Source: Patescibacteria group bacterium (lineage in GTDB: Bacteria > Patescibacteriota > UBA1384 > 2-12-FULL-50-11). From it: 64,000 bases of DNA. Position numbers and translations under genes: made by a program. The stretch covers positions 20,948 to 84,947 of the forward strand of contig JBBUAP010000002.1 in NCBI GenBank assembly GCA_038058635.1. Reading direction: 5' to 3'. A model generated the notes under the pieces. That model did no database searches, had not been told where the DNA came from, and was given only the letters and a program-made list of their open reading frames with translations. Position 1 is the first letter of the stretch. Every line of letters begins with the position of its first letter. Positions 34,525-52,825 of this stretch are shown piece by piece.

Positions 34525-35637
34525 ATGAGGTCTTTGGAGGATGCGGCGCTAGCAAGTAAAGTAGTTTTAGTTCGGATCGACGCCGATGTTCCGTTGACGT
34601 TCGGCGATTCAGTCGAGGTGGCCAACGACTACCGCCTACAAAGGTTACTACCAACCATCTTCTTTCTAATGAACCACCGAGCCAAGATTATTCTCTGTGG
34701 TCATGTCGGACGGCCACTGGCGAAAGTCGACCCAAAATTGAGCATGAAGCCGGTTTTTACCCATCTATCGGCGTTGACTAACAAAAAAATCTTGTTTGCC
34801 ACCGACCCCTTCTCGCCCTTAACCAAGAAAACGATTGACGAGCTCAAAGAAGGAGAAATGATCGGGCTAGAGAATATTCGCTTTTTTAAAGGCGAAGAAG
34901 ATAACTCTCGTACCTTTGCTCGTAAACTCGCTAATCTTGCCGATATCTATGTTAACGACGCTTTCGGCACCTCGCACCGTGAAGCGGCCTCCGTGGTGGC
35001 AATAACGGAGTTTCTACCATCGTACGCTGGCTTACAGCTTGAACGGGAAATGGAAGTGCTGACAAGTTTAACTCGCCACCCCGCCCATCCGTTTATTGCT
35101 CTCGTCGGTGGGGCCAAGATTTCTGATAAATTACCAGTGATCCGAAACCTTCTACCTAAGGTTGATCGAGTCATTGTTGGCGGAGGAGTGGCTAACACCT
35201 TTTTAGCTAGCCAGGGCGTAGACATAAAAAACTCTAAGGTAGAGAAAGACTATGTTGACCGGGCTGGCGAAATGCTCAAGAATTCTAAGGGCAAAATCGT
35301 TCTCCCGGCCGATTATGTTTGGGAAAATGACATGATCCTTGATGTCGGCGAGAAATCGACGCTCCAAACTATTCAATACATAAAATCGGCCAAAACCATC
35401 CTCTGGAGCGGCGTGCCCGGCAAAATTGAACAGCCACCGTTTGATAAGGCATCTACTGCCATTGCTAAAGCTATTGCCAACTCACCGGCCACCAGCATTG
35501 TCGGTGGCGGCGATACCGTCGGTTTCATTGACGGCTTGGGATTGGCCCACAAGTATTCCTTCGTTTCGACCGGTGGCTCAGCTCTGCTCGAGCTATTGGG
35601 TGGGCGGGCTCTGCCCGGCATCCGGGCCTTGGGGTAA
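34525..35637 (+). CDS. pgk: phosphoglycerate kinase (short form)
   Basis: VLVRIDADVPL N-terminal substrate motif, the GGAKISDK hinge region, and VGGGDTV near the C-terminus. Confidence 0.85.
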   Translation: MRSLEDAALASKVVLVRIDADVPLTFGDSVEVANDYRLQRLLPTIFFLMNHRAKIILCGHVGRPLAKVDPKLSMKPVFTHLSALTNKKILFATDPFSPLTKKTIDELKEGEMIGLENIRFFKGEEDNSRTFARKLANLADIYVNDAFGTSHREAASVVAITEFLPSYAGLQLEREMEVLTSLTRHPAHPFIALVGGAKISDKLPVIRNLLPKVDRVIVGGGVANTFLASQGVDIKNSKVEKDYVDRAGEMLKNSKGKIVLPADYVWENDMILDVGEKSTLQTIQYIKSAKTILWSGVPGKIEQPPFDKASTAIAKAIANSPATSIVGGGDTVGFIDGLGLAHKYSFVSTGGSALLELLGGRALPGIRALG

Positions 35638-36552
35638 GGCGGGCGAAGTCACCTCGGGAGTTTGCAGGGCCAGGCCCTCCGTAGGGCCTGGCCCTGTGGG
35701 AGGTATGAGAGGCGTGGGTAGTGCAGGTGGTGGGGTCGGCGATTCGATCTGTCGGACCTCCTGTTCAATAACGGCCGCGGTTTGGACAACCCGGCTTTCT
35801 AGCTGGTAAATTTTTGCCAGCAACTCCTGTTCTTTGGCTAGGGCCAGTTTTTCAGCCGCGAATCCGCGACGAACCTTGCGGCTCAAGCGCAGAATCAAGA
35901 TAATCAGGACTGGTTCGGTCAAGAAGAAGAGAATGATGACCAATAAAACCCAAAATGGTATTTGCAGCTCCACATCGGTGTTAACCAGTCGTTCGTTGGC
36001 TGGTTTCGAGGGTTTGGGTTTAGCCGGCTCGAGTACTGTTAACTGACCACCGCCAGGAAGATTTATTTTAATTGTTAAATTAGTTAGAAACGGCAGGGGG
36101 GTGAATGTGACCGTTGGTTTATCATCGAGCGTCACCCCTTCGGCAACAGCGGTGAAGGTGGAGTTGCCAGGCACTTCGGAGCTTGCAGCACAACGAGCCT
36201 TACCCTCGGTATCGGTAACGGTCGCTCGGCTGTTGGTGAGGGTACTGCCTGAGTAGCAAAGAATAGTATCGACATCGCCTCGATTAGAGCTAACAGACAC
36301 CTGCTTGTTCGGTAGGGCCAGACCCTCTTTAGATAGGATAGTGGCAGTCAAAACGACGGCCGATTTACCATCGGCCGGTAACTGGACAATGTCGCTAACA
36401 AAAGTGGAAATCCCGGCATTGACCGACGAGACAACGGTGGCATTAACCGTTGTGTTTTGAGCCAAGACAATTGCTGGGATAACGACCAGGAAAGCCAGTG
36501 TCGCCAGAGAAAGCCTCGCACTTAAAGATTGGAAGCAGGTTTTGAGCTTCAT
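35593..36552 (-). CDS. secreted Ig-like (Big-like) domain protein with TM anchor, cytoplasmic coiled-coil and Pro-rich tail
   Basis: Signal peptide, then a roughly 130-aa beta-rich domain resembling bacterial Ig-like folds (SAVVLTATILSKEG...ATVTDTEGKARCAASSE), a TM helix (FWVLLVIILFFLTEPVLIILIL), KVRR, a heptad-like region, and a P/T-rich end. Last gene of the minus-strand surface operon. Confidence 0.5.
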   Translation of the reverse strand: MKLKTCFQSLSARLSLATLAFLVVIPAIVLAQNTTVNATVVSSVNAGISTFVSDIVQLPADGKSAVVLTATILSKEGLALPNKQVSVSSNRGDVDTILCYSGSTLTNSRATVTDTEGKARCAASSEVPGNSTFTAVAEGVTLDDKPTVTFTPLPFLTNLTIKINLPGGGQLTVLEPAKPKPSKPANERLVNTDVELQIPFWVLLVIILFFLTEPVLIILILRLSRKVRRGFAAEKLALAKEQELLAKIYQLESRVVQTAAVIEQEVRQIESPTPPPALPTPLIPPTGPGPTEGLALQTPEVTSPALPQGPDAGQSPPTQ

Positions 36553-36554
36553 CG

Positions 36555-37532
36555 CTAACGAATCACAATCCTGGGTGGTGCTGAAATAGTGGTCGGTGGT
36601 GGGGGAGGCGGTAAAACAACTGTCTTCTGGCGGCGTTTTTTGTAAACTGCAAAAGCAATTCGCAGAGCCAACAATGTCAGCGCGACAATGAACCAGATCG
36701 GAATGATCACAAAACTGCGAGTGGCAAGGAGTTGCTTTTCCTCGGTTCCGTAGTAGAGGGCAGTGGTAGCAGTATATTTACCAATCGCTTTCCAGTTAAA
36801 GCCCCAACTGGTTTCAAAGCGTCGTTTACTGTCTGGCAAGACATTACCTTCGCCCTCATTTATTTTGATGGCGGCAGAAGTGTCGCCAAACCAGTTTCTG
36901 ATCTTCAGCTCTCCCTTCGGTCGGAGGTGAATATTGCCGGTATTAGAAAACAGGACCGAAAAATTAGCCGGTGGCGCAATTAAGATTCTGGGGGCAACAA
37001 ATTCTTCCAGCGTTAGTCGCTCGATGATATCGCCCGGGACTTTGGCTAACATTAGCGTTCCAACTAGGCCGACTACTCCGATCTGGCTGACATCCTCTTC
37101 TAAGGATGGTGCTTCGGTTGAAAACAAAACCGCGGCGTAGTGGCCGCCCGGATCGGCGTTTTCTGGGACGGTGATGGTGACATCGAATTTCTCGTCCTCG
37201 CCTGGTGTCACCCGAATAAAGGGTTTGGAGAAAGTTATCCACTGAGACATCGTCCAGCGCGAGGTTTTGTCCTTGGGGGTAAAGAAACTTGGCTGACCTT
37301 TATTGTTGTCGGTGTGAAAGTCCAGAGCTCTAGGGTAAAGAGTAACTTCCTTGGCAACAGGGTTTATCACTCGCAGAGTTCGGGTGGTTACTTTGCCTGG
37401 GACAACATCAAAAGTTTCAGTGACTGGGGTGACGGTAATACCGGCGGCGTCTTGGGCCTTAATGCTCGATTGGGGCGCAATCAAAATAATCGCTAACACT
37501 CCTAGGAGTAACAGCCGGTTAAGAAACCTCAT
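36555..37532 (-). CDS. secreted protein with C-terminal TM anchor and poly-Pro cytoplasmic tail (DUF916-like architecture)
   Basis: Signal peptide (LLLGVLAIILIAPQSSIKAQD), a roughly 260-aa extracellular domain, a C-terminal TM (IIPIWFIVALTLLALRIAFAV), then YKKRRQK and PPPPPP. Start codon lies 2 nt after the upstream gene's stop. Confidence 0.5.
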   Translation of the reverse strand: MRFLNRLLLLGVLAIILIAPQSSIKAQDAAGITVTPVTETFDVVPGKVTTRTLRVINPVAKEVTLYPRALDFHTDNNKGQPSFFTPKDKTSRWTMSQWITFSKPFIRVTPGEDEKFDVTITVPENADPGGHYAAVLFSTEAPSLEEDVSQIGVVGLVGTLMLAKVPGDIIERLTLEEFVAPRILIAPPANFSVLFSNTGNIHLRPKGELKIRNWFGDTSAAIKINEGEGNVLPDSKRRFETSWGFNWKAIGKYTATTALYYGTEEKQLLATRSFVIIPIWFIVALTLLALRIAFAVYKKRRQKTVVLPPPPPPTTISAPPRIVIR

Positions 37533-37533
37533 G

Positions 37534-38772
37534 CTAGTAAGTCGCTGTGCAAACGTAGGTAATAGTGTCGGTATAGGATCCCGCCGGTGCCAAACCTGAA
37601 ACAGCGGCTTTATGGACGATGGTCAGGACTCTACTGGCTAGAGCACCGGTGGAAGCAGCGATGGGAACTGCAGCGCCTGCCCCAACTTCCAGGCCACCCA
37701 TCTCGTTAGCACCGCCAGAAGCGTCGAAACGACCATCAACCGTTAAGGCGGCACCGGAACCACTGGCACTGGAGGCCGATACCCCAAAACCATCGGTTCC
37801 AGCCGCCAGTGTGGCGGTATTAGCGTAAGACGAATCGGCTGAACCGATTAAGTATGTTGTCGTGGATGATTTATATAAGCCTGGGTTGGTAGTATCTCCG
37901 GCGTCATAGACGATGATATTCAAACCGCCCTGACCGTTAGAGCTGGCGGTGATGGTAGTACTAGTATCAGAAGTTGAGACTGCGCCAGTCGTCAGCGAGG
38001 AAAAAGTGGTGGTTAGTCCGGTGAAAGTACAAGTGATGGAAGGATCGACAGTGGCGTTAACTGTCACATCGTTGTCGGCGATGACTTCGAGGGCCAGGGT
38101 GCCAGTATCAGTAAAACCACCACCGCCGGTTAGGGTGACTTTAGCGTCAGTGACATTTTGGGCCGCTGATTGGTTGGTGATTTGGTCGTTACCAGCCGAG
38201 CCACTAGTAGCATTAGTGCCAATTTCAATGGTGACGACTGATGAGGCAGCAATAGTGGCGTCAGTAGCACATCGAGTAAAAGTAAAGCCAATTGGGTCGA
38301 TGATATCGGCAGTGGTAATTTCAATCTCAATGGCCGCTCCAGAACAACCGCCGCTAGCAACCATTGTTTGATCTACTCCGTCATCAGTGACATCAAAATC
38401 TTCTGGTTCACTGTTCAGAAACCCAGCCGCACTAAAACCAGCCGGAAAAGCTAGCGCCAAGGTTTCACCAGCCACCCAAGTGTCGGCAATGGTAAAGGTG
38501 AAGGTATGGTTGGCGACAACGGACTCCTTCATCGTCGACAAGACATCAGAAAACGATGTTACCGGGGCGGCAAAAGCCGAGGGTGTATAAGGTAAGAGTA
38601 AGCTAAAAGTCACGACCAGTACCACCAGTCGAGTCAACTTGACCCACAGATTGTTCTTTCCCCCTCGTCGCATTCTTGTACTCAGCTTCCTGCTCTTTAT
38701 TGAGAATGTCAAGGGTTTTTGAAGAAATTTAATTGGTAATCCGCCTCCGACCGGTTGGCGGATGGCAGACAA
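37534..38772 (-). CDS. secreted T/S/G-rich surface protein sharing a C-terminal 32-aa motif with the giant protein
   Basis: Sec signal peptide (likely real start at Met34, about 38673: MRRGGKNNLWVKLTRLVVLVVTFSLLLPYTPSAFA|AP), a low-complexity T/S/G/A-rich body, and a C-terminus ...RVLTIVHKAAVSGLAPAGSYTDTITYVCTATY. Confidence 0.5.
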   Translation of the reverse strand: MSAIRQPVGGGLPIKFLQKPLTFSIKSRKLSTRMRRGGKNNLWVKLTRLVVLVVTFSLLLPYTPSAFAAPVTSFSDVLSTMKESVVANHTFTFTIADTWVAGETLALAFPAGFSAAGFLNSEPEDFDVTDDGVDQTMVASGGCSGAAIEIEITTADIIDPIGFTFTRCATDATIAASSVVTIEIGTNATSGSAGNDQITNQSAAQNVTDAKVTLTGGGGFTDTGTLALEVIADNDVTVNATVDPSITCTFTGLTTTFSSLTTGAVSTSDTSTTITASSNGQGGLNIIVYDAGDTTNPGLYKSSTTTYLIGSADSSYANTATLAAGTDGFGVSASSASGSGAALTVDGRFDASGGANEMGGLEVGAGAAVPIAASTGALASRVLTIVHKAAVSGLAPAGSYTDTITYVCTATY

Positions 38773-38787
38773 AATTCAAAACTCCGA

Positions 38788-38816
38788 GATCTTCAAAGGC
38801 CTGGCCTTTGAAGATC
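38788..38816. repeat. REP-like perfect palindrome (type a) between the giant gene and the downstream operon
   Basis: gatcttcaaaggcc-t-ggcctttgaagatc, a 14-bp stem. Same family as 53806 and 54546. Confidence 0.8.
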
Positions 38817-38874
38817 CTTCCCCCTCGTCGCATTTTTAATCCAGCGTTGCTCTCCTCGCTGAATCTGTCAAGCA

Positions 38875-41800
38875 TCAGAATGTCCCGGTCAATATATATA
38901 GTACCTCTGTTGTATACGGATTGGCTTCTTGAAGTTCGCTAACCGAGACTTTGTGGGTGATGGTGAACGCTTCGTTGGTGACAGGACCGCTGGTGCCGTC
39001 AACGGCGGTGGTGTGATCGGCGATGATATCGCCAAAGGCCGTCAGACTTAACGGTGCGTAGAGCGTGCCGGTGCTAAACTTGTTGACACCCTGAATGGTG
39101 GTGTCGTCCGAGGTGTAGCCGTAGCCACAGTTGGTGCTAGGCGTACAAGTACCACCTGGCCAGGCGCCGGGTGAGGCGTAGGTGCCACCCTCAAACATCG
39201 GAATGGTTTTGACGCCTTTAGTCAGGAGGGAGCTAGCGTATTGGCGAATAACATAACCGCCGTAGGCGTTAGTGCTGGAGGTCAAGACCAAGGTCTTGGA
39301 GTCGCTCCGATTATTACCGTTATTGAGGTTGGCGAAGGTAATTGTAACCGCGCCGAGCGACAAGCTAATCGTTGGCAGAACCGACTGGCCGTTCGATGAA
39401 GTGACGCCCGAAGTATTGGTGGCGTTGTCGACCGCTCGAACATTGAAGAAGTAATTCTGGTTGGTTCGCAGAATCAAGCTACCCGATGTGACCGATTCGG
39501 TCGTCGAGTTATCGGTCCAGGCCTTGATATCGGTCCCACCGCTAGTCGTACCAATAGAGTATTGATACTTATTCAACCCGGAAACGGTGCAGGTGAAAGC
39601 ATCCCAGTTAGCCGAGACGGCAGTGAGCGACCCATCGTTATATGAAGCGTCAACATCTTCGACCGTGCCATCATAGATACTTGAGCCGTAAGTGCAGGCG
39701 GTCGTGTCAACGCCAAAGTCACGATTGGCCTCTGGATTGGCGCCAAACGAGATCCAACCAGAGTAGCCACCAAAGGTATCCTTAACTCTGGCTTGCCAGT
39801 GGTACTCGTTGGCATCAGTGATTCCGGCAATAGTAAGGACGACCGTTACTGGTGTGCCAGAGTAGGCGACACCCGAACCGCAGGAATCCTCGGTGTTGGC
39901 AAAAGCATCGGCGATCAGATCTTTCTCGACACACAAGTACAAAGTGTCGGGATTGTCGGTATCCGAGGCGGTGGCGGTGAACTTAACTGAAGTCTCGTTA
40001 GTCCAATCCCCAACGGCCAAAACCGTGTCGTCGGTCTTCTTTTGGGCCAGGGCAGAGGGATCATTCGGGTTGGTGTTAACTTGCCAGTGGAGGAAACCAA
40101 GACTATCGCTACCGCCGTCTCCGGTGTCGGAATCGGAGGCTTCACAATCGCTCCAGCCGGTACAGGTGGAAGGATACAAGGCCCAGTAGTTGCCAGCCGC
40201 TGGAGCGCCGGTGGCTGTTTGAGTAACGGAGTATTCTGGGACATTGTCAGAGGCCTCAAGGAAGGTCATATTGTCCCAAGTTTTGGCTGGAGCACCGGTG
40301 CCTATTAACGAGCCGTGGACTGTGATGTAGGTATCGGTTGCCCCGACATTCTGGAAGTTATCGAATTCGCCGTCATCAAGATTGGTCAGCGTCGCCCCAG
40401 ATTGAAGGTCGAGGCCGTTACCGCCGCTGGTACCGCCAAGGTAACTAAATTTGTAGTACTGGGCGTCGATTGTTCCGGCCACATCGAAGTGGTAGCCACC
40501 GGAGGCCCCACGAGTAACAGTGGAGAGATTAGTTGAAGTGGTTTGGCCTTTCAGCTCGAGTGTTTTGCCCGAGCCAACGGTGAAGATGTCGCCATCCTGC
40601 ATCATCGTCATTGGCTTAATGGTCGAGGTAGAGTTGTCGGCGTCAAAGGCAGCGAAGGTGTAAGTGGCGTTTAGAGCGTAGGGAGTGGCACCACAGTCAA
40701 CGGTGAACTTGGTATTAACGGCACCAGTCGAATCAGTGAACAATGTCCCGGTCGTTAGATCACCAACATCGGTACCGTTCCGGTAAACATCCATTACCGC
40801 TTGGCTAGTGACACAGCTGGCTCCGACACCGGCGGTTTTGGTGACAAGCATGTAAGCATACGGACCGGCCGACAAGTCAGCCGGAGCCGACAGGTCGTAA
40901 GCAAGGTTCGTGTCTTCGGTGCCAGTCCCAGAATACCCGTGCGCCGTAACCGATTTTTCCCACAAATTGTTGGCGTAGTTGAATTTGTCAGTACTCTCCA
41001 CTTGTGGCGTTTCGGCTGTATCGGCCGGAATGGCATACTCGCCCCAGAGCTTGGTTGCGCCAGCCGAGGTGTCGTGCTTGCGAGAAACAATATATGCCCC
41101 AGCAACAGTTACCCCAGTCACTTCAGTAGAAGAAGAGAGAGTGGTGTTGTAGAGAGAAAGGGTGTGAGCGTTAGTTCCGGCAAAAATAATGTCCGCCGTA
41201 GTATTGGCAGTTGCGCCATAGACATCATTAATGATGACATTGCCGGTTGAGGCAGTATTGTCGCTAACATATAAACCATACGACTGACCGCCGCTCTGAT
41301 TTCCGATTAATGTGTTGTTGTTAGAGATACTAAGACGAAAGCCCCAGCTGCCGTTACCCGTGGAAGTATTGGAACTTAATATATTATTACTGGAGCTGAC
41401 ATTCAGGAGAAAACCAGATGAAATATTGCCGGTGGCAGAGTTGCTCATTAGGATATTGTTGGTGGAAGTAGTGATAATAAACCCATATAGACTGTTGCCA
41501 ATAGCGGTATTAGATGTCAGGGAGTTATTTGAGCTAGAGTCGATAAGGAAACCGTAGTTAACATTGCCGGTGGAGGTATTAGATGTCAGGGTGTTATTGT
41601 TGGCGCTGGAGTCGATACGGAAACCGTAGGAGGCGTTGCCAGTGGCGGAATTGGAAGTCAGGGTGTTATTGGCGCTGGCGTTGAGATAAAAGCCAGCAGT
41701 AGTATTACCTATAGCCGTATTGCTCGTCAGGGTATTGCTATTGGAGCTGACCTGAAGGTAGAAGCCGTAGCTGGTATTACCCGAAGCGATATTGTTAGAC

Positions 41801-44800: not shown

Positions 44801-47800
44801 AAACTCTGCCCGTTGGAGGTAATGGTTTTGCCAGTGGCGACAGCAGTCATATTAACCGTTGATGTTCCCGGATTGACATTGACGGTGCCTGTTCCATTTA
44901 AGAATTTAGTACTTCCATAAATATTGAAGGTAGAAGTCTGTAAGTTAAGCTGATTCGAAGTCCCACCGTTACTTACCACATAAAGTGAGTCACCAGTTGA
45001 GGTCAGGGTGACCGTGCTTGAACCAAAGTTGTGCGTAGTATCTCCTTTATAAGCCGTCGACGAGTTGATACCCATATAACTGGCATTGATGGCATAATTT
45101 TGAGTATTAAATATGTATCCGGTCAAACCGGTTGTAGCTCCGGTACGAACACCATTAGTTGTAGTTAAATCGCCACCTAGCTGAAGGACAGAATTGTTAC
45201 CACTCGATCGATTATTTAAATCGAGTAACCAGGAGCCGTAATTTCCTCCGGCGACTGTGTTAGTAATTGAGGCCGAGTTATTGATAAATGCCATATTGGT
45301 ACTGCCAGTAATTGTGGTGGCGCTGGCGAATACAACTGATGAACCGGTCGTCGTCCTGTATAAATCGATATAATTCTGTCCTGCACCGGCTACCGTACCG
45401 CCATTGAAGGTGAGCGTCCCATTGTTAAGTCTAAAATCCGCACCAGTTAATGTAGTAGTAAATCCTGTATAGCCAATAGACAAGTTATAGAAGTCGTAAC
45501 CCGATACCGTGGTAATGGTGCCAGTTCCATTAGCCGTAACTGTCGAAGTGCCATAAACAAATTTCTCGCCTGTATCCGTATAATGTCGGCTGACTGTAAT
45601 AGTCGAGCTCCCCGCCGTGTAGCTAACTCCCGCGGTATTGGCCAGCGTAAAGTCTCTCGTTACAGTTAGGGCTAAGTTGTTGGCTGTTACGGCGCCGTTG
45701 GTAACAGTGAAATCGTTGGTGGCGGCGACAGCATTGCTGTAAGTCCAACCACCAGCCACACCATCAAAGGTTAGGTTGTAGAACGAACTTGCACCGGTCA
45801 TTGTCCCAGCTAAGGTTTTGCCCGTAGCAGTGGAAGTGAAGGTAGTGGTGTTTGATGCCGAGGTAAAGGTGCCAGCATTGTTGTAAGAGCCGCCGATCGA
45901 AAGAGCATTACCACCCATACTAAGGGTGCCGACTATATGTAGGTCTCCGGCCAATCCAGTGGTGACGGTTCCACCCGGAGTGAAGGTCTTACCAGTTGTA
46001 ATGTGGAGCGCTTTACCGGCCGTCACACTTAAGTTTCCTGTCGTCACCGTAAAGAGCATATCGGTAGCGTTCTGATCGATGTCGTAAAGATCTAGTCCCG
46101 TATTTGTTTGCGGTCCAGCGTTGTCGTGTCTAACTGCAACTTGGTCGATGTAAATGTCGACGCCGGTTTCAGTAACGGCATTAGAAAGAGTAACGGCATT
46201 ACCCTTACTGGCGGAAGTTAAGTAGATCGTGACGGTCTGTCCGGCCGTTGGGGTTATTGCCAAGTAAACGGTGTAGGCGGCGGTGGAGGCAGAACAGGTA
46301 GCGGTGGCGGCCGATCCACCGTTGACCCTAGCGGTGATGATGGCGGTTGAGCCATCGCACGGCCCACCGTTACCAGAGGTGCCGATGGTCGATTCGTTCG
46401 TTAAGTAGACGATACCCTGGATACTAATACTGGAAGAGAAGTGTAAGAAGCCATAAGTATCTGCTCCGCCGTCACCGGTATCGGAATCAGAAGCTTCACA
46501 GTCCGTCCAGCCAGTACAGGTCGAGCCGAAGAACGACCAGTAGTTCCCAGCCGCTGGAGCGCCGGTGGCGGTTTGGGTGACGGTGTACTCTGGGACGTTG
46601 TCGGATGCTTCGAGGAAAATCATATTGTCCCAGGTCTTGGCTGGAGCGCCGGTCCCGATCAATGACCCATGAACCTTTATGTATGTATCTGTTGCGCCAA
46701 CATTCTGGAAGTTGTCGAACTGACCATCATCCAAATTAGTTAGCGTTGCCCCGCTTTGCAGATCCAAGCCATTTGCCCCACTGGTTCCACCAAGATTACT
46801 AAATTTGTAGTACTGGGCGTCAATGGTTCCAGCGACATCGAAATGGTAGCCGCCAGTGGCGCCACGAGTCACAGTTGTCAGGTTAGTGGCGGTCGTTTGG
46901 CCTTTCATCTCTAAAGTCTTTCCGGACCCAACCGTAAAGATGTCACCGTCAGTCATCATCGTCATGGGTTTGATGGTTGAAGTGGAGTTGTCGGCGTCGT
47001 AAGCAACAAAAGTGTAAGTAGCATTCAAGGCATACGGGGTGGCACCGCAGTCAACGGTGAATTTAGTGTTAACAGCCCCAGTCGAGTCGGTAAACAATGT
47101 CCCGGTGGTTAAGTCGCCAACATCAGTACCGTTACGGTAGACATCCATCACTGCTTGAGAAGTCACACAGCTGGCTCCGACACCAGCGGTCTTGGTAACA
47201 AGACGGTAGGCGTACGGGCCGGCCGACAAATCAGCCGGAGCCGACAAGTCGTAGCTCAAATTAGTATCTTCGGTGCCGGTGCCAGAATATCCGTGAGCGG
47301 TCATGGACTTCTCCCACAAATTGTTGGCGTAGTTGAATTTGTCAGTACTCTCCACTTGTGGCGTTTCGGCTGTATCGGCCGGAATGGCATACTCGCCCCA
47401 GAGCTTGGTTGCGCCAGCCGAGGTGTCGTGCTTGCGAGAAACAATATATGCCCCAGCAACAGTTACCCCAGTCACTTCAGTAGAAGAAGAGAGAGTGGTG
47501 TTGTAGAGAGAAAGGGTGTGAGCGTTAGTTCCGGCAAAAATAATGTCCGCCGTAGTATTGGCAGTTGCGCCATAGACATCATTAATGATGACATTGCCGG
47601 TTGAGGCAGTATTGTCGCTAACATATAAACCATACGACTGACCGCCGCTCTGATTTCCGATTAATGTGTTGTTGTTAGAGATACTAAGACGAAAGCCCCA
47701 GCTGCCGTTACCCGTGGAAGTATTGGAACTTAATATATTATTACTGGAGCTGACATTCAGGAGAAAACCAGATGAAATATTGCCGGTGGCAGAGTTGCTC

Positions 47801-50800
47801 ATTAGGATATTGTTGGTGGAAGTAGTGATAATAAACCCATATAGACTGTTGCCAATAGCGGTATTAGATGTCAGGGAGTTATTTGAGCTAGAGTCGATAA
47901 GGAAACCGTAGTTAACATTGCCGGTGGAGGTATTAGATGTCAGGGTGTTATTGTTGGCGCTGGAGTCGATACGGAAACCGTAGGAGGCGTTGCCAGTGGC
48001 GGAATTGGAAGTCAGGGTGTTATTGGCGCTGGCGTTGAGATAAAAGCCAGCAGTAGTATTACCTATAGCCGTATTGCTCGTCAGGGTATTGCTATTGGAG
48101 CTGACCTGAAGGTAGAAGCCGTAGCTGGTATTACCCGAAGCGATATTGTTAGACAAGGTATTGCTGTTGGCACTGCCGTTGAGATTAAATCCATAGAGAG
48201 TGTTACCAGCTGCCGAGCTGTTAGTGATACCCTTAGCGTTAGCGGTGTTGTTGTTGAGGGAGGCGGACAGTCGAGCGCCACGGTGGCCACTTCGTAAGCG
48301 CGATCGGTCAATGGTCACACCCTCGCTGGCGTTGGCGCCGTTGACAGAGTCGAATGTTACCCCAAATTTTAAGCTAGCATTGCGGCCTAGATCACAGACA
48401 TCGGCGTAATTCATAACTGTTTCCGAACCAGCGTTGGCATGAATATAACTTTCGCCAGCCTCATCATTCGTTGCGGTACAGGCAACGCCGTCTTCGGCGG
48501 TGACATTGGCGTAGTCATAAATTTCAAAATTATCTCCAGGTCTAACTCCGTCAGAGATATCTACCGTATCTCCGGAAGTGAAACCGGAGAATACATCGGG
48601 GGATTCGATGACTTTCAGGAGATCGTCGGTACCGGTACAGGAGGCAGAGTCGTTAGCGGAATCGGTGATCTGGAAGTAGCCCTTGGTGCTGGTAAAGTCA
48701 CGCATATACGAACCAATCTTTTGGTTATCTGCAGTAATGGAGTCAGGGATACAGACAGCCATAATGCCGTTATTGTTGGAGAGAGTTTTACTAGCGCTGA
48801 CAACGGAAGCGGTTGAGGTATCGGCTCTAGTAATGGAATCATAAGTAGCTGTATCACACTGAGCATCGTTGACGGTTGTGGCTGTGATGGCGTAGATCTG
48901 CCCGACAGCCAGACCACTTGTTGCTCGAACATGATTACCGTTGAACTGACTACTGGTGAAGGTGGAATTTGCGCAGAGCTTTGTTTCCCGGTTGTCGTAG
49001 TCGGTTATGGCGGTGGAGGTAGTTTCCGTAAGTGAAATTGCGCCGGTGACATTAAGTTTTCCGGTGGAAGCGACTTCCACACCGGTGTCAGATGCTGTCG
49101 CAGAGGATTTTGGAATGAGTTTGAGAATACCGTTTTCGTTGATGGTGAGAGTTCCTTGACCGCTACCGGAGCTTGCGCCGACATCAACTATACAGTTAGC
49201 GCATTGAGTGGCAGTATCTTTGTTGACTTGAACGGTGATGGTACTGCCTTCCGCCAGACCGTCTTTTGTTTGTAAAGTACCCGTTTCATTAGCGACGATA
49301 GCGATGTCAATACCGCCGTAAACAAGTAGGTTGTCGCCGTTACCATTACCAACCGTCACTGTACCGTTACTAACAACTAAGGTGTCAGCCGCTGGCGTAC
49401 CGGCTGAAGTGTCAACCAACATCGGGTCTTGAATGGTCCAAGCCCCAGCGACCCCGTTAAAGATAACTTTGAAGAAGGCCGAAGTACCGTTCAAAGTTCC
49501 GGAGATGGTATTACCGGCGTCAGTAGCGTTGAAGGTAATCGTACCGCTTCTGGCGGTGAAAGTGCCGGAGTTAGAGTAATTATTTCCTATTGTTAGAGCG
49601 TAGTTAGAAGCTGTCACATCCAAAATGGCGCTGGCATGGGTGATGGTTAAGTTGTTGGTAACGACGGTGTCGCCCTCCAGAACGAAAGTGTCGGCGGCGT
49701 TAAGTTCCAGATCGTAATACGAACTGGTCATAGATTGAATTGTGGTATTGCCTCCAGCATTGGCGCCGGTGTAGTAGAACTTGGAGGTGCCACCGACCAG
49801 AGCGCCGGCTGGGGAAGCGAGGAGTTGGAACGGATCGCCGCCGGTCCCGGAAAGAGTCCATGTGCGGTTACCGGCATTGAGGGTGGTTGTCGCTCCAGCG
49901 GCATCACCTGATTTACCAACCCTTAGAATATCCGAAACAGTAACACCTCCCGTCCCACCAGTTTGGGTGGTAACGGTAAACGGTGAAGAAGCATGGGAGT
50001 TAGAGAATGTTAAATCGTAGAAAGTCCAGGCAGTTGAACCAGAAGTAGTTCCGAAGTTCTTGGCCGCTCCAATTCGTTGTTCGAATGTCCCACCGGTCAA
50101 TGATATTATCCCGGCCGTCCCCGCCACCGCCCCATTAACAGTCACATTCTGCGTGCCATTCAGGGTTCCTGCGGTCATGGTCAGGTCGTTAGTAGCAATA
50201 AGAGCATCTTGGGGCGTCCAGCCACCACCCGAGCCGTCAAAGATGATGTCATAGAAAGACTGAGCGTTGGAAGTGATGGTTTTACCAGTGGCGACGGCGG
50301 CATAGGTAACGGTAGAAGTCCCTGGGGTTAAGGTTATTGTGCTACTGGAGTTGACGAATTTGGTGTTGCCGTAAACAGTAACGGAAGAGGTTTGGAGATT
50401 AAGGGCGTAGGCCGTGGTGCCAGTGGCGGTTGGTAGAAGCGAGTCGGTAGTGGAAGTCAGCGAAACGGTACTTGAACCAAAATTGGCCGTCATAGCGCCG
50501 ACACGAGAAGCGGTGTCACCCAGCTGAAAGTAACTGGCGGTCAGACTGAAGTTTCCAGTATTGAAGATACTACCGGTAACTGCGTTAGCCGCAACAGGAA
50601 TAAAATATCCAGTGGTGGTGACATTGCCAGAGAGCTGAGTCGTTGAGCCGTTACCCGAAGTGTGAAAAGCATATAAGTTCCAAGAACCGTAATTTCCAGC
50701 TGGAATACTGACGGTGATTGCAGCGGCGTTGGCGTAGCTAGCTAGCTGTCTCGTTCCTGTCAGCGTAGTGGCGGAAGCAAAAGCAATTGGGGTATTGCTG

Positions 50801-52818
50801 ACATTATTATAGATCTCGGTGTAGCTACTGGCGGAAGTGGCCGTACCGCCATTGAAGGTAAGAAGCGGAGTATTGCCGCTCGAACAGGCTAGGGTCTGGT
50901 AGCTGGAGAGCGTAGTGGTAAAGCCGGTGTAGGCAATGGAAAGTTTACAGAAGTATCCGTTAGTAATAGTGCCAGTGCCGTTCATTATCACCTGGTTTGC
51001 CCCCGAAGTATTGGCTTTTTGACCGACATCACTCCAGCTACCGCTAACGGTGATAGTGGAGCCACGGTACAAGAAACCAACGCCGGCGGTATTGGCGACG
51101 GTGACCGTGCCGGTGACGGTCAGGGCATAACTAGAAGTGCCGTTGGTATCGAATGAGCCGTTAGTAATGTCGAAATTATTGGCTGCTTCTAGAGCAGCGT
51201 TAAGGGTCCAGCCACCGGCGACGCCGTTAAAGACGATGTTGTAGAATTTTCCGGTAGCGCCGGTCATCGTGCCAGCTAATGTTTTGCCGGTAGCGGTGGA
51301 AGAAAATGTGACCGTACCGGTGGCGGCGGTGAAAGTGCCGGAGTTGGACCAGTTGCCGCTAACGGTGATGGCGTTAGTGGTGGAGACGGTAAGAGTTCCG
51401 CCAACATCAATCGTCACTCCTGCCACCGTGACCGAAGCGGTATCTTCAGTGATGTTGTGAGTATTTAATATCTGAACGGTATCTGCCGCTTGGGGAACCG
51501 TACCGCCACAGTTTTGCCATGATCCAGTCGCACTCCAGTTACCAGTGGCAAGTGACTGACAAGCGTTATCGGAAGCGATGAGCCAACTTCTGGGCTCCAC
51601 CCACTTCGTGGGATTGTTAGTTTCTAATACTTCTGAAGGACCTAACTCAAATAAATATGGTGATATATTAGGAGTTTTAAAGGTGTATGTCAGTGGGTAA
51701 GTTTGACCGGCCTTGGCATCGATATTCCAGCTCAACTTAGTTGGGCTATCCGCAGTCTTGGTTACTTCTGCTTTGGTATCTTTAATCTCAAAATTGCTGG
51801 GAACAAATTCATCCAAGCTGTAACTGCCGGCTTTCTTAGCTTCAAAATTCAAGGTGTAGTCGTAGTCGACTGGCGGGTAAGTTCTGGTGACGCCGACTCG
51901 TTGGAGGTAGAAATCTTGATTGGCTTTGACGCTGAACTGGTCGTGAAGGGTTCTGGTGCCTTCGCCGGCTTTGGCAATAATTTTGACCTCGTAGTCACCC
52001 TCAACCGATGGTTTGAAGTTGGCTTCGTAGTCGGGTCGATCAGTTTTACCGTAAACTTCACAGTCTTTGTTGACCCGAACGGTACCATCGGCAGTGTTGA
52101 GCGTTGTGGTTCTGCCGTTTGGATCGGTGACTTCAACAGTCATTGCGGCTGTACAGACCATTTTGCCACGATCATCGAGCACCGCCAGACTGAAGAAAGC
52201 ATCTTTGCCGACAGGGTAAACGGCGTAGTCGGGGTTGAAAGCTAACACTCCCCAAAGAACTTTTTGGTCGTTGAGGACAATGCCTGAATCTTTTTGGACT
52301 GTCTCGACTTTATAGGCGCCGGCTGTCAGCCCTTGATCTTTTGACTCGATAGTTAAGGCGTCTTCAGTTGTTGAAACAGAAATATCTTTGGTTCGGTCTT
52401 CAGCGCCGACTTCTTTGACAAGCTTAACTTCGGTCTGACTGATATTAGTGTCGGATTTCTCGAGCTTGATAGTATCTTCGGCTGGTACGACTTCGTAATT
52501 ACCCTCGAAATATTCGTTGGGCTGGCTGCTACGGGCGGTAACTTCGGCAACAGAGAGAAACTGTGAGTCGATATCGGTAGTTTCTACGATCTTGATTTGG
52601 CTCGTATTGTCAGGATTAACTGCCTTGTCGATTTGAGCTCGGATCGGACCAAAATAGGCCAGCACCCCAAGCCCAATAACTAGAGCAAAGAAGATTGAGA
52701 AAAATCTAACTGGATGATAGGCGTATTCAGACAACACCGTTGCCCGGGTCTGTCGGTAGATACCATCAAGACGAGTTTTGGCTTTTTCAACCCGCGCCGT
52801 CATCTGGCTTTCTCCCAT
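38875..52818 (-). CDS. giant (4,647 aa) membrane-anchored parallel beta-helix (PbH1/NosD-like) repeat surface protein with an internal 2,118-aa tandem duplication
   Basis: Uninterrupted 13.9-kb ORF. Probable start at Met6 (52803) after a GGGAGA SD. N-terminal TM (FFSIFFALVIGLGVLAYF). Two large repeat units, each containing T/S/G/N-rich beta-rich modules and 10 or more PbH1-type 22-23-aa repeats (NTLTSNTAIGN-x-YGFYL...). C-terminus ...EAFTITHKVSVSELQEANPYTTEVLYILTGTF. Confidence 0.8.
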   Translation of the reverse strand: MGESQMTARVEKAKTRLDGIYRQTRATVLSEYAYHPVRFFSIFFALVIGLGVLAYFGPIRAQIDKAVNPDNTSQIKIVETTDIDSQFLSVAEVTARSSQPNEYFEGNYEVVPAEDTIKLEKSDTNISQTEVKLVKEVGAEDRTKDISVSTTEDALTIESKDQGLTAGAYKVETVQKDSGIVLNDQKVLWGVLAFNPDYAVYPVGKDAFFSLAVLDDRGKMVCTAAMTVEVTDPNGRTTTLNTADGTVRVNKDCEVYGKTDRPDYEANFKPSVEGDYEVKIIAKAGEGTRTLHDQFSVKANQDFYLQRVGVTRTYPPVDYDYTLNFEAKKAGSYSLDEFVPSNFEIKDTKAEVTKTADSPTKLSWNIDAKAGQTYPLTYTFKTPNISPYLFELGPSEVLETNNPTKWVEPRSWLIASDNACQSLATGNWSATGSWQNCGGTVPQAADTVQILNTHNITEDTASVTVAGVTIDVGGTLTVSTTNAITVSGNWSNSGTFTAATGTVTFSSTATGKTLAGTMTGATGKFYNIVFNGVAGGWTLNAALEAANNFDITNGSFDTNGTSSYALTVTGTVTVANTAGVGFLYRGSTITVSGSWSDVGQKANTSGANQVIMNGTGTITNGYFCKLSIAYTGFTTTLSSYQTLACSSGNTPLLTFNGGTATSASSYTEIYNNVSNTPIAFASATTLTGTRQLASYANAAAITVSIPAGNYGSWNLYAFHTSGNGSTTQLSGNVTTTGYFIPVAANAVTGSIFNTGNFSLTASYFQLGDTASRVGAMTANFGSSTVSLTSTTDSLLPTATGTTAYALNLQTSSVTVYGNTKFVNSSSTITLTPGTSTVTYAAVATGKTITSNAQSFYDIIFDGSGGGWTPQDALIATNDLTMTAGTLNGTQNVTVNGAVAGTAGIISLTGGTFEQRIGAAKNFGTTSGSTAWTFYDLTFSNSHASSPFTVTTQTGGTGGVTVSDILRVGKSGDAAGATTTLNAGNRTWTLSGTGGDPFQLLASPAGALVGGTSKFYYTGANAGGNTTIQSMTSSYYDLELNAADTFVLEGDTVVTNNLTITHASAILDVTASNYALTIGNNYSNSGTFTARSGTITFNATDAGNTISGTLNGTSAFFKVIFNGVAGAWTIQDPMLVDTSAGTPAADTLVVSNGTVTVGNGNGDNLLVYGGIDIAIVANETGTLQTKDGLAEGSTITVQVNKDTATQCANCIVDVGASSGSGQGTLTINENGILKLIPKSSATASDTGVEVASTGKLNVTGAISLTETTSTAITDYDNRETKLCANSTFTSSQFNGNHVRATSGLAVGQIYAITATTVNDAQCDTATYDSITRADTSTASVVSASKTLSNNNGIMAVCIPDSITADNQKIGSYMRDFTSTKGYFQITDSANDSASCTGTDDLLKVIESPDVFSGFTSGDTVDISDGVRPGDNFEIYDYANVTAEDGVACTATNDEAGESYIHANAGSETVMNYADVCDLGRNASLKFGVTFDSVNGANASEGVTIDRSRLRSGHRGARLSASLNNNTANAKGITNSSAAGNTLYGFNLNGSANSNTLSNNIASGNTSYGFYLQVSSNSNTLTSNTAIGNTTAGFYLNASANNTLTSNSATGNASYGFRIDSSANNNTLTSNTSTGNVNYGFLIDSSSNNSLTSNTAIGNSLYGFIITTSTNNILMSNSATGNISSGFLLNVSSSNNILSSNTSTGNGSWGFRLSISNNNTLIGNQSGGQSYGLYVSDNTASTGNVIINDVYGATANTTADIIFAGTNAHTLSLYNTTLSSSTEVTGVTVAGAYIVSRKHDTSAGATKLWGEYAIPADTAETPQVESTDKFNYANNLWEKSMTAHGYSGTGTEDTNLSYDLSAPADLSAGPYAYRLVTKTAGVGASCVTSQAVMDVYRNGTDVGDLTTGTLFTDSTGAVNTKFTVDCGATPYALNATYTFVAYDADNSTSTIKPMTMMTDGDIFTVGSGKTLEMKGQTTATNLTTVTRGATGGYHFDVAGTIDAQYYKFSNLGGTSGANGLDLQSGATLTNLDDGQFDNFQNVGATDTYIKVHGSLIGTGAPAKTWDNMIFLEASDNVPEYTVTQTATGAPAAGNYWSFFGSTCTGWTDCEASDSDTGDGGADTYGFLHFSSSISIQGIVYLTNESTIGTSGNGGPCDGSTAIITARVNGGSAATATCSASTAAYTVYLAITPTAGQTVTIYLTSASKGNAVTLSNAVTETGVDIYIDQVAVRHDNAGPQTNTGLDLYDIDQNATDMLFTVTTGNLSVTAGKALHITTGKTFTPGGTVTTGLAGDLHIVGTLSMGGNALSIGGSYNNAGTFTSASNTTTFTSTATGKTLAGTMTGASSFYNLTFDGVAGGWTYSNAVAATNDFTVTNGAVTANNLALTVTRDFTLANTAGVSYTAGSSTITVSRHYTDTGEKFVYGTSTVTANGTGTITTVSGYDFYNLSIGYTGFTTTLTGADFRLNNGTLTFNGGTVAGAGQNYIDLYRTTTGSSVVFASATTITGSTNMAFINNSASITNTVAGGNYGSWLLDLNNRSSGNNSVLQLGGDLTTTNGVRTGATTGLTGYIFNTQNYAINASYMGINSSTAYKGDTTHNFGSSTVTLTSTGDSLYVVSNGGTSNQLNLQTSTFNIYGSTKFLNGTGTVNVNPGTSTVNMTAVATGKTITSNGQSFYNLVFNGVGGGWTLQDAMSVTNNFDITNGTFDTNTTFNYALTIGGNLTGNAGTWSLTERASTITVSGNWDTSAVATDSLSIVEGTSTVIMDGAGTKTITTGVTNTYEPRFYNLNVGQAGGKTTQMLQSFGIDNVLTLGAGTFDLNSKTFYLQSPPTNPLSLSGTWGTGNGQIYIFGGSANTNFPAYTYNSGFVNQLPSTYSIIFQGTTTFTGNMSLGGCCSLANITNLNGQTVTVNGNIDFTTTTAILTMGAANLTVKGNWTNSNAAVFNADTSTVDFAGTSGTQTVITGGTGSTKQFYNLTHSGASILSLSTTALQVANDLSNAGGTMSGGVDVTVNGSATGVGAITMSGSSLFTQRVGASKNFGTTSGSNAWTFVSLTFSNSHASSPFTVTTQTGGSGGITVSSILLVGASGDAAGATTTLNAGNRTWILSGTAGDPFQLLASPAAVLTPATSTFSFWGNNAGGNTTVQVATYYNLNTGCLNIFCIETYDLEGNTTVTNDLTIDVPATLDTVSGSNWGLTIGGNYSNIGTFTARSGTVTFNATDSGNTLSGTLNGTSAFFKVIFNGVAGAWTIQDPMLVDTSAGTPAADTLVVSNGTVTVGNGDADNLLVYGGIDIATTADQTAILQTMDALAEGSTITLQVNKDTSTQCANCIVDVGASSGSGQGTLTINENGILKLIPKSSATASDTGVEVASTGKLNVTGALSLAATSSTAITDYDNRETKICANADFSVGYTSKHVRTTSGLAIGQIYAITATTTDDAQCDTGTHDSITRADTSTASVVSASKTLSNNNGIMSVCIPDSITADNQKIGSYMRDFTGTKGYFQIVDSANDDASCTGTNDLLKVVESPDVFSGFTSGDTVDISDGVRPGDNFEIYDYANVTAEDGVACTATNDEAGESYIHANAGSETVMNYADVCDLGRNASLKFGVTFDSVNGANASEGVTIDRSRLRSGHRGARLSASLNNNTANAKGITNSSAAGNTLYGFNLNGSANSNTLSNNIASGNTSYGFYLQVSSNSNTLTSNTAIGNTTAGFYLNASANNTLTSNSATGNASYGFRIDSSANNNTLTSNTSTGNVNYGFLIDSSSNNSLTSNTAIGNSLYGFIITTSTNNILMSNSATGNISSGFLLNVSSSNNILSSNTSTGNGSWGFRLSISNNNTLIGNQSGGQSYGLYVSDNTASTGNVIINDVYGATANTTADIIFAGTNAHTLSLYNTTLSSSTEVTGVTVAGAYIVSRKHDTSAGATKLWGEYAIPADTAETPQVESTDKFNYANNLWEKSVTAHGYSGTGTEDTNLAYDLSAPADLSAGPYAYMLVTKTAGVGASCVTSQAVMDVYRNGTDVGDLTTGTLFTDSTGAVNTKFTVDCGATPYALNATYTFAAFDADNSTSTIKPMTMMQDGDIFTVGSGKTLELKGQTTSTNLSTVTRGASGGYHFDVAGTIDAQYYKFSYLGGTSGGNGLDLQSGATLTNLDDGEFDNFQNVGATDTYITVHGSLIGTGAPAKTWDNMTFLEASDNVPEYSVTQTATGAPAAGNYWALYPSTCTGWSDCEASDSDTGDGGSDSLGFLHWQVNTNPNDPSALAQKKTDDTVLAVGDWTNETSVKFTATASDTDNPDTLYLCVEKDLIADAFANTEDSCGSGVAYSGTPVTVVLTIAGITDANEYHWQARVKDTFGGYSGWISFGANPEANRDFGVDTTACTYGSSIYDGTVEDVDASYNDGSLTAVSANWDAFTCTVSGLNKYQYSIGTTSGGTDIKAWTDNSTTESVTSGSLILRTNQNYFFNVRAVDNATNTSGVTSSNGQSVLPTISLSLGAVTITFANLNNGNNRSDSKTLVLTSSTNAYGGYVIRQYASSLLTKGVKTIPMFEGGTYASPGAWPGGTCTPSTNCGYGYTSDDTTIQGVNKFSTGTLYAPLSLTAFGDIIADHTTAVDGTSGPVTNEAFTITHKVSVSELQEANPYTTEVLYILTGTF
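39400..51400. repeat. intragenic tandem duplication, period 6,354 bp (two copies), with a 1.28-kb block of apparent nucleotide identity
   Basis: Antisense ORF pairs are offset by exactly 6,354 nt (40801/47155, 41312/47666, 41727/48081, 41846/48200, 42085/48439) with identical translations over 40960..42238 vs 47314..48592. The flanks are diverged but homologous. Confidence 0.85.
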
Positions 52819-52825
52819 TCCGTGC

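Follow-up and report, generated by a model that had tools for sequence, protein, structure and literature searches.

The locus described here raises the question of how a bacterium might display a secreted protein of 4,647 amino acids (aa) on its surface. This protein is encoded by the first of four co-directional open reading frames (ORFs) at positions 35593-52818 (minus strand) of the window, by which the whole analysed stretch of 64,000 nucleotides (nt) is meant. The window belongs to the Candidate Phyla Radiation (CPR, Patescibacteria), as indicated by a 16S rRNA gene with group I introns and by Berkelbacteria-like relatives; all homologues come from Patescibacteria, the closest and most of them from Candidatus Berkelbacteria. 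The four ORFs were confirmed and translated, and together they form a conserved cell-surface operon. It probably encodes a chaperone-assisted donor-strand-exchange pilus, a divergent, Berkelbacteria-like form of the Pam type.

Pam pili were described in 2026 from cryo-electron microscopy (cryo-EM) of the filaments of Ca. Mycosynbacter amalyticus (Saccharimonadia) (Troman et al., bioRxiv 10.64898/2026.03.03.709456). According to this preprint, the inter-domain linker strand of the Pam pilin is donated to the open C-terminal immunoglobulin (Ig)-like domain of its neighbour. PamA, PamB and PamE are the pilins and PamT is a domain-only tip without linker. PamC and PamD are PapD-like chaperones with a transmembrane (TM) anchor, and PamR, the terminator, has one more strand at its N-terminus and is anchored by a TM helix at its C-terminus. 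The window operon comprises an acceptor-only, a donor-plus-acceptor and a donor-only subunit together with a tethered chaperone-like protein, a set that follows the logic of donor-strand-exchange pili. As this set maps one-to-one on the Pam model, the giant would be the tip and the 379-aa protein the shaft, while the 325-aa protein would serve as chaperone and the 319-aa protein as anchor:

38875..52818, minus strand: giant secreted protein, 4,647 aa, proposed tip adhesin (ORF)
37534..38673, minus strand: shaft pilin, 379 aa (public protein, AlphaFold2 (AF2) model, NCBIfam)
36555..37532, minus strand: membrane-anchored chaperone-like protein, 325 aa, WxLIP/DUF916-type and PamC/D-like (AF2, Foldseek, Pfam)
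35593..36552, minus strand: proposed base/anchor subunit, 319 aa (Pfam, translation)

The initial annotation had placed the genes at 38875..52818, 37534..38772, 36555..37532 and 35593..36552, and ORFs are present at these coordinates. For the second gene it had assumed an upstream TTG start and a product of 412 aa. This length is unsupported: the public annotation and all homologues use the ATG at 38673, which yields 379 aa, and the resulting protein (MRRGGKNN...) is 100% identical to NCBI AAB669_02995. Among the gaps that had been given (102, 1, 2 and 2 nt), those of 1 and 2 nt are correct. The first measures 201 nt rather than 102 because of the later pilin start, and there are three gaps, not four.

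The shared C-terminal domain and the proposed pilin

The giant and the pilin resemble each other at their C-termini, and the pilin carries an additional linker in front of the shared part:

38878..39384, minus strand: acceptor domain of the giant, residues 4479-4647 (pilin C-terminal domain profile, BLASTP, linker table)
38878..38964, minus strand: C-terminal signature of the giant, TITHKVSVSELQEANPYTTEVLYILTGTF-COOH (translation)
38041..38076, minus strand: proposed donor strand of the pilin, residues 200-211, DNDVTVNATVDP (conservation, monomer model)
37537..38040, minus strand: acceptor domain of the pilin, residues 212-379 (AF2 model, family alignment)
37537..37623, minus strand: C-terminal signature of the pilin, last 29 residues, TIVHKAAVSGLAPAGSYTDTITYVCTATY-COOH (translation)

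It had been claimed that both proteins end in a common signature of 32 residues, 14 of them identical. The signature does end at the last residue of both, but a recount gave 13/32 identities and the shared part is a whole domain of about 170 aa. BLASTP aligned the two C-termini over 175 residues (24% identity, E 2e-5). A profile made from the C-terminal halves of 25 pilin homologues matched the last 169 residues of the giant with 60.3 bits (hmmsearch, E 1.3e-20, profile positions 9-175). Across the pilin family the motif ...HKAxxSxLxPAGSYTDTLTYxATGxF-COOH is kept and is always terminal, with Y367 and T376 invariant. The search with a C-terminal profile that had been suggested as a check was applied to 79 CPR loci (one genome per species, 10-kb flanks). 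Their ORFs were searched by hmmsearch with --max; the default bias filter of HMMER misses all giant proteins. The domain clearly recurs at the extreme C-terminus in these related loci, ending at most 3 residues from the C-terminus in 124 of the 128 domain-bearing ORFs. At E<=1e-3 the family counts 5,755 cluster representatives (50% identity).

Judged from the sequences, the terminal module is the last strands of an incomplete Ig-like domain of about 170 aa that is related to the Pam pilin C-terminal domain. The earlier description of the module as a sorting, docking or donor-strand signal therefore holds for donor-strand-type docking, with the module as part of a strand-accepting domain, and fails for a short sorting signal. 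We propose that the signature is conserved and always terminal because the final beta-strand region borders the strand-accepting groove. In chaperone-usher systems, the chaperone grips the equivalent C-terminal strand of the subunit together with its free carboxylate. By analogy, the C-terminal strand may also be gripped by the chaperone of this operon.

The pilin consists of a signal peptide (1-35), an N-terminal beta-sandwich (~36-199), the donor linker and the C-terminal acceptor domain. In its AF2 model (predicted local distance difference test (pLDDT) 93.2), two beta domains are joined by a linker, as in the Pam layout: strands 41-194 are followed by an unpaired, non-strand linker (195-212) and strands 213-377, and the signature forms the last strand (371-377). 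The side chains of the linker DNDVTVNATVDP are alternately hydrophobic, and few segments of the family are conserved as well as this linker and the C-terminal strand. The motif (I/V)ADDxVxV(T/N)ATVDP directly precedes the first C-domain strand in every shaft pilin and is absent from every tip examined, giant or small. By analogy with the PamA/PamB structures (bioRxiv 10.64898/2026.03.03.709456), the linker may act as the donor strand. Cys215 and Cys375 are found in the first and last strands of the acceptor domain. The fold matches of the pilin include the pilus subunits CsuA/B, CfaB, CsuE and CfaE; against PDB sequences, neither the single sequence nor the family profile returned anything useful.

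The NCBIfam model NF058581 (CPR_Pam_pilin_C) matches residues 231-379 of the window pilin with about 20.1 bits (E 4e-4 to 5e-4). It also matches 15/25 members of the pilin family (E<=0.01, best E 1.6e-14), and one member matches the PamT model NF058579. The C-terminus of the giant gave no match to NF058581. At the sequence level, the relationship of the window pilin to the Pam pilins is real but distant.

Proposed tip, chaperone and base across CPR loci

Further features of the giant are the following:

52648..52710, minus strand: hydrophobic N-terminal segment, residues 37-57, then GPIRA/Q (translation)
46440..50079, minus strand: super-repeat copy 1, minimum extent (direct repeats spaced 6348-6357 nt)
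40086..43731, minus strand: super-repeat copy 2, minimum extent (direct repeats)

The hydrophobic segment is probably a signal peptide with a long n-region, the cleavage site (the slash above) being placed by the -3/-1 rule. The giant is built from right-handed beta-helix/NosD-type repeat blocks and Ig- or fibronectin type III (FnIII)-like domains, followed by the acceptor domain. Pfam Beta_helix and NosD match it in four stretches (E 3e-30) and NCBIfam para_beta_helix in 8. A super-repeat of ~2,118 aa is present in two tandem copies that are 70% identical over 1,868 columns in a self-comparison of the protein. Inside these super-repeats, which are otherwise ~78% identical, the 1,280-nt stretch 40958-42237 is exactly identical to 47312-48591. 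Such identity means either that gene conversion took place recently or that the metagenome assembly is collapsed or chimeric here.

The acceptor domain of the giant begins directly at its first strand (SVLPTISLSL), and no ADDxVxVxATV donor linker stands in front of it. An acceptor domain without linker strand was likewise found in every other tip examined. In about 17 other CPR loci, a giant ORF with the C-terminal domain lies directly upstream of the pilin gene; these ORFs often run off the 10-kb flank at >2,000-3,300 aa, so that their lengths are lower bounds. In a complete Berkelbacteria genome, the orthologous giant ends with ...YTITHRVAVDALQEAKTYQTEVLYIVTGTF before its stop codon; downstream lie three pilins, a homologue (329 aa) of the 325-aa protein and a Big_1/TM protein of 326 aa. 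The giant is most likely the acceptor-only distal tip adhesin, with adhesion as its presumed function.

The 325-aa protein had been described with a signal peptide, a single C-terminal TM helix, a KKRRQK stretch and a PPPPPP stretch, all of which were found in its translation:

37038..37082, minus strand: candidate strand-donating segment, residues 151-165, IGVVGLVGTLMLAKV, at the end of domain 1 (AF2 and conservation)
36642..36707, minus strand: TM helix (translation, AF2)
36624..36641, minus strand: KKRRQK, cytoplasmic side (translation)
36594..36611, minus strand: PPPPPP, cytoplasmic side (translation)

Its AF2 model (pLDDT 89.6) shows a signal peptide, two beta-sandwich domains and the TM helix (279-302), after which the basic and Pro-rich tail follows. 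The pLDDT dips at 140-160 (loop) before the strand 157-165; L160 and G167 are invariant in the family. Residues 151-165 may form the donating strand, by analogy with the G1 strand of PapD-like chaperones and with the WxLIP hairpin that completes WxL (PMC10599100).

In a Foldseek search with this model, the WxLIP structures 9i1y and 9i25 came out on top (E 4e-12 to 2e-11), then RbmA, and the chaperones CsuC, CfaA and Caf1M were matched at E 1e-10 to 1e-8. A single-sequence search against PDB sequences gave nothing useful. With the family profile, the only significant PDB matches were EfmWxLIP1 chains 9i25_C and 9i1y_A from E. faecium (E 5e-5). Pfam DUF916 (PF06030) matches 21/35 family members (best E 1.9e-9), the window protein itself scoring 18.9 bits against a gathering score of 27.3, and close homologues carry the NCBI name 'DUF916 domain-containing protein'. 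No DUF3324 was found by Pfam in the second domain, which aligns weakly to EfmWxLIP1 (3 bits). The DUF916 idea of the initial annotation is thus borne out, both by the Pfam matches in the family and by the E. faecium WxLIP as top PDB match in sequence and fold. At family level, the 325-aa protein is clearly homologous to WxLIP. Its gene, separated from the pilin gene by 1 nt in the window, occurs in 61/65 loci carrying the pilin domain. The operon encodes a PapD/FimC-like two-domain protein that retains a C-terminal TM helix, most likely a membrane-anchored chaperone, to judge from the systems that it resembles.

The last protein had been predicted to combine an Ig-like domain, a TM helix, a coiled coil and a Pro-rich tail. 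The Ig, TM, heptad-like and Pro-rich parts are all present, and a signal peptide and a donor-like strand can be added:

36421..36456, minus strand: donor-like strand at the predicted mature N-terminus, NTTVNATVVSSV (translation, motif comparison)
36100..36405, minus strand: Big_1 Ig domain (Pfam Big_1, E 1.7e-8)
35884..35961, minus strand: TM helix, residues 198-223 (translation)
35743..35859, minus strand: heptad-like helix (translation)
35596..35742, minus strand: Pro-rich tail (translation)

The hexapeptide TVNATV is common to NTTVNATVVSSV and the pilin linker (compared pilin stretch: DVTVNATVDPSI). Linker-like N-termini are also seen in the post-chaperone proteins of other loci, such as FDVTVTATVVDE in L015 and IDISVTATVPSP in L017. 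Straight after the signal peptide, the linker motif occurs in 11/60 ORFs just downstream of a chaperone gene, compared with 9/3205 other ORFs (Fisher p 4.6e-15). Orthologues of the 319-aa protein occupy the equivalent operon position in L001, L002, L003, L009, L025 and L028. The protein is most likely a donor-only base or membrane anchor. The earlier idea that the small protein and the giant are both hung on membrane partners is probably too simple: the small protein has a donor linker, the giant has none, and the 319-aa protein has a donor-like N-terminus.

In other CPR lineages, a signal peptide and a donor-like strand open the post-chaperone protein; Ig-like domains follow, and the place of the TM helix is taken by a type I dockerin, which scores 30-36 bits in Pfam, above its threshold. 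Proteins of this kind are encoded at L015 12140-12997, L016 13101-14012 and L017 12089-13063, and also in L011, L018, L020 and L050. A dockerin at the end of the base protein implies a cohesin-type cell-surface receptor for the pilus base. Either end, TM-type or dockerin-type, suits a base subunit by which the fibre is held on the cell. Downstream of the chaperone gene, Uhrbacteria-type loci encode proteins of 700-1,260 aa with a pilin N-domain and a donor linker (e.g. DDSVSVSATV) and without acceptor domain (L037, L039, L040, L042, L045, L051, L053, L054, L059, L062, L069 and L074; ORF starts ~9900-10000). Such proteins might be large subunits of the donor-only class, placed at the base or as a cap.

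Three profiles (pilin N-domain, C-domain, chaperone-like protein) were also run over every ORF of the 79 loci. The recurrent order is a C-domain protein without pilin N-domain, one to three pilins and the chaperone-like protein. Elsewhere, the first position is taken by a domain-only protein of 230-330 aa instead of a giant. Conservation of the gene block, proposed earlier as a check, extends to diverse CPR lineages, in which the order of tip, pilin(s), chaperone-like protein and base protein is kept. Gene content and order, the domain homologies, the presence of linker and acceptor in each subunit class and their conservation are direct observations.

Short tip proteins carry a conserved segment of ~55 aa between signal peptide and acceptor domain, with three S-(S/T)-T-N-Y-x-L repeats and no Pfam match (L005 9277-9975, L007 9028-9858, L012 9833-10558, L029, L035, L061). 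P0263 (3,077 aa), the best-scoring representative of the library-wide search, has ten tandem matches, all to the pilin N-terminal domain only. The CPR-type operon was also encountered in metagenome-assembled genomes labelled Gammaproteobacteria, Bacteroidia, Methylococcaceae or Nanoarchaeia (L012, L015, L029, L037, L052, L054, L058, L064, L068, L071, L078); these are probably mis-binned or mis-labelled CPR contigs.

In the proposed mechanism, all four products would be exported by Sec. The 325-aa protein would be held in the cytoplasmic membrane by its C-terminal helix and would work as a PapD/WxLIP-type chaperone. Subunits just exported, with their Ig-like C-terminal domain still incomplete, would transiently borrow a strand from it to complete this domain. 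With an acceptor domain and no donor strand, the giant could sit only at the distal end, where it would present ~4,400 residues of beta-helix and Ig-like adhesin. Beneath this tip the 379-aa pilin, which has both the donor linker DNDVTVNATVDP and an acceptor domain, would polymerise head-to-tail. The 319-aa protein, with its donor-like N-terminal strand, Ig spacer and TM helix and without acceptor domain, would finally stop growth and tie the fibre to the membrane. Strand exchange, assembly order, chaperone function and adhesion are what we infer in this scheme.

Pam pili, WxL clusters and other surface systems

The operon and the Pam system are alike in being CPR-restricted and in having Sec-exported two-domain pilins with paired cysteines, whose linker is the donor for an incomplete Ig-like C-domain. 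They also have in common an acceptor-only tip, two-domain chaperones that keep a C-terminal TM helix, a base protein that in its architecture has a strand at the N-terminus and a TM helix towards the C-terminus, and an operon without usher or other envelope machine. They differ in tip and base protein. The Pam tip is one small domain, whereas that of the window is fused to a beta-helix protein of 4,647 aa. In place of the two RbmA-like FnIII domains of PamR, the base protein of the window has a Big_1 domain, and on the cytoplasmic side it adds a heptad helix and a Pro-rich tail. In addition, the window contains one pilin gene and one chaperone gene, and its flanks are housekeeping genes, whereas an ATP synthase/CorB neighbourhood is reported for pam.

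Several points weigh against the assignment to a Pam-type pilus. The window pilin scores 20.1 bits with NF058581, below the curated cut-off of 55, and its link to PamA/B is therefore transitive, through other family members. The likeness is drawn from sequence families and layout rather than from a direct fold comparison with a Pam structure, and for the groove, for the register of the donor and for the strand of the chaperone the scheme uses predictions. The 18-column linker profile is too short and reached no significance on the anchor N-termini, where the support is the positional enrichment. The Big_1-type anchor differs from PamR, as said above. The exact 1,280-nt repeat in the giant gene could point to an assembly problem. 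Moreover, a tip of 4,647 aa far exceeds the size of any donor-strand pilus tip known to us.

The Pam system itself is already known, from one 2026 preprint and the NCBIfam models, and the window operon is a distant variant of it. Three things are absent from that work: giant adhesins fused to an acceptor-only tip domain, which are widespread among CPR; base proteins of the donor-only class, anchored by either a TM helix or a dockerin; and the clear homology that links the chaperone to the WxLIP/DUF916 proteins found in Bacillota. The preprint (bioRxiv 10.64898/2026.03.03.709456) nowhere mentions WxL, DUF916 or a giant tip. In the collection of papers that was searched, we found none on giant CPR pilus tips and none that joins DUF916/WxL to CPR or to donor strands.

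Chaperone-usher pili (Pap/Fim, Csu, CFA/I, Caf1) likewise have incomplete Ig-like subunits, a strand supplied by a two-domain chaperone, donor-strand exchange, a tip adhesin without donor strand and a conserved subunit C-terminus bordering the groove. In contrast to these pili, with their outer-membrane usher and soluble periplasmic chaperone, the window system has four genes only, between housekeeping flanks, no outer membrane or usher, and a chaperone tethered by a TM helix. There is no sequence similarity, and the donor is an internal linker between two domains, whereas theirs is an N-terminal extension. TasA fibres, archaeal thread and bundling pili and TasA-like proteins are comparable in their beta-sandwich subunits, donor-strand complementation and lack of an outer membrane, the match being at fold level only. 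They differ in having an N-terminal donor strand and neither a gene for a TM-anchored two-domain chaperone nor an acceptor-only giant tip. A sortase-assembled pilus was rejected as well: no LPXTG sorting signal on the pilin and no pilin-specific sortase gene were found.

The closest competitor is a display of the WxL/csc type, essentially the reading of the initial annotation, in which the giant and the 379-aa protein are each docked non-covalently on the 325-aa protein, which inserts a strand, and no fibre is formed. The csc clusters of Lactobacillales were reportedly described by Siezen in 2006 as a small WxL protein, a large WxL protein, a WxLIP (DUF916-DUF3324-TM) and a small LPXTG protein. 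In a WxL cluster, a small protein made up mostly of the C-terminal domain and a large one with additional N-terminal binding domains have that domain in common, and a strand of the single WxLIP is predicted to complete the WxL sandwich (Hassan et al. 2023, PMC10599100). The window matches this layout: a small and a large protein share the C-domain, and one WxLIP homologue, recognised by sequence and fold, is encoded with them. Behind its signal peptide this helper has two Ig-like domains, then a TM helix, and it is likewise predicted to complete its partner's beta-sandwich by one strand. The motif Y-x3-[ILV]-x-[YWF]-x-[LC] is also like the distal WxL motif, and some genuine WxL-cluster proteins have Tyr or Phe in place of Trp.

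However, the equation of the C-terminal motif with the distal WxL motif could not be demonstrated. At least two proteins with a C-terminal WxL domain (two Trp-x-Leu motifs), a small LPXTG partner and a Bacillota host would mark a WxL cluster. Pfam WxL (PF13731) matched neither the window proteins nor 65 family members, the motifs contain no Trp, no LPXTG followed by a TM helix occurs in the four window proteins, DUF3324 was undetected by Pfam, and the organism is a CPR bacterium. No WxL chain is among the fold matches listed for the pilin. For a direct comparison, 12 WxL domains from seven genuine clusters on plasmids were aligned. With hhalign, the C-domain scored 20.6 against them (P 0.009, above all 200 column shuffles). 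Unrelated beta-rich pairs gave 18-20.5 (C-domain with pilin N-domain 20.5; WxL with the chaperone family 19.1), and as these controls score like the pair in question, homology is not claimed.

Other features separate the operon from simple docking. Besides its C-domain, the small protein carries a further domain at the N-terminus. It also has a donor linker that is absent from the tip, relatives carry tandem pilin genes, and a donor-only base gene follows that of the chaperone; docking needs none of these last three. WxL proteins are not known to polymerise, whereas the family in question matches the NCBIfam Pam pilin models, and cryo-EM showed that Pam pilins polymerise. We therefore regard a WxL-type display without fibre as rather unlikely.

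A deeper connection between the two systems is conceivable. By eye, the WxL domain and the Pam-like C-domain have three collinear motifs in common, a resemblance that serves as a lead; homology of these two domains is possible, with the odds somewhat against it. Pam-type pili and WxL/csc clusters might then be two branches of one ancient monoderm system, in which the WxL domain is a Pam acceptor domain completed by a tethered WxLIP/PamCD-type chaperone. We hold this idea tentatively, as worth pursuing but doubtful on balance. In that case, TNAxxGYxV would be the counterpart of the proximal W-x-L motif and YTDTLTYxxT that of the distal one.

During these comparisons it was seen that in genuine Enterococcus/Lactiplantibacillus WxL clusters, Tyr or Phe can replace the distal Trp (QYTTTITYNLT, TYTANITFDLR, TYSGTIDYNIS; also QYTTTITYNLTADP). 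The proteins concerned are encoded at L084 5032-5748 and 6857-11335 and at L086 5219-5800, and two of them are annotated only as hypothetical or BspA-family.

A sheath or two-dimensional surface layer made of the 379-aa protein, with the giant as an independent surface enzyme or adhesin and the shared domain binding the envelope (peptidoglycan or membrane lipid), is very improbable. The pilin is T/S/G-rich like many surface-layer proteins, the NosD/beta-helix repeats of the giant often occur in polysaccharide-active enzymes, and WxL domains have been described as peptidoglycan-binding (PMC10599100). Yet such an arrangement leaves without a role the strict pattern of acceptor-only, donor-plus-acceptor and donor-only proteins and the co-conserved chaperone-like gene, and the domain is of Pam-pilin type and always placed at the extreme C-terminus.

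CPR bacteria are monoderm, and this already speaks against the terminal aromatic motif as a signal for outer-membrane beta-barrel assembly (BAM) or another kind of C-terminal sorting. For Pam, too, only an inner membrane is described (bioRxiv 10.64898/2026.03.03.709456). Although the ends ...TYVCTATY and ...LYILTGTF alternate hydrophobic residues and close on an aromatic one, like the beta-signal of outer-membrane proteins, this signal and sorting signals of the PEP-CTERM or LPXTG kind can be dismissed: the AF2 pilin model is a soluble two-domain beta-sandwich without barrel, the motif closes a conserved domain of 170 aa, and a tail of TM helix plus basic residues is lacking.

Surroundings of the operon and wider meaning

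The 201-nt spacer between the first two genes holds elements of its own:

38674..38874, minus strand: giant-pilin spacer, 201 nt, possible regulatory role (sequence reading)

It contains a TTGACA box and a hairpin with a 12-bp stem (TCTTCAAAGGCC/AGGCCTTTGAAGA, ~38789-38813), which might serve as an internal promoter or an attenuator. A second copy of the 16-nt pilin start ATGCGACGAGGGGGAA lies at 38832 and opens a 34-codon ORF (MRRGGRIF...). Relatives have 2-3 pilin genes, and the duplicated start looks like the remnant of a lost tandem pilin copy.

The operon is flanked by housekeeping genes (those for TIM, PGK, trigger factor and ClpP), plus DUF3800 and RAYT-like genes. Two upstream ORFs were considered and placed outside the system: 52800-53084 is probably spurious, and 53081-53683 encodes a cytoplasmic-looking DUF3800 protein. 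Just upstream of the operon, two paralogous genes resembling REP-associated tyrosine transposases (RAYT) at 53836-54522 and 55359-56141 (minus strand; NCBIfam E 1e-11 and 4e-13, below cut-off) flank a YbhB/PEBP-family gene (54583-55263). Two group I introns (61105-61479 and 62392-63370) interrupt the 16S rRNA gene, which lies on the plus strand at 59871-64000 and reaches the window end. In or near these inserts are an ORF of 223 aa (61424-62095) and one of 298 aa (62450-63346), which may encode homing endonucleases.

The homology between the chaperone and WxLIP ties the pilus system to WxL loci that are associated with virulence and colonisation in Enterococcus, Listeria and Lactobacillus and whose mechanism is still debated, and it suggests a re-reading of that mechanism in chaperone and donor-strand terms. 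If both did belong to one system, WxL proteins would be more than simple binders of peptidoglycan: they would be subunits completed by a partner strand and might even polymerise, and giant adhesins could be mounted on such fibres via an acceptor-only domain. CPR bacteria are ultrasmall episymbionts whose attachment to the host is largely unknown, and a pilus family with thousands of members appears here to obey a simple grammar. Its tip slot can hold beta-helix proteins of several thousand residues, which gives a testable picture of how giant adhesins may be displayed far from the cell without an outer membrane or sortase pili.

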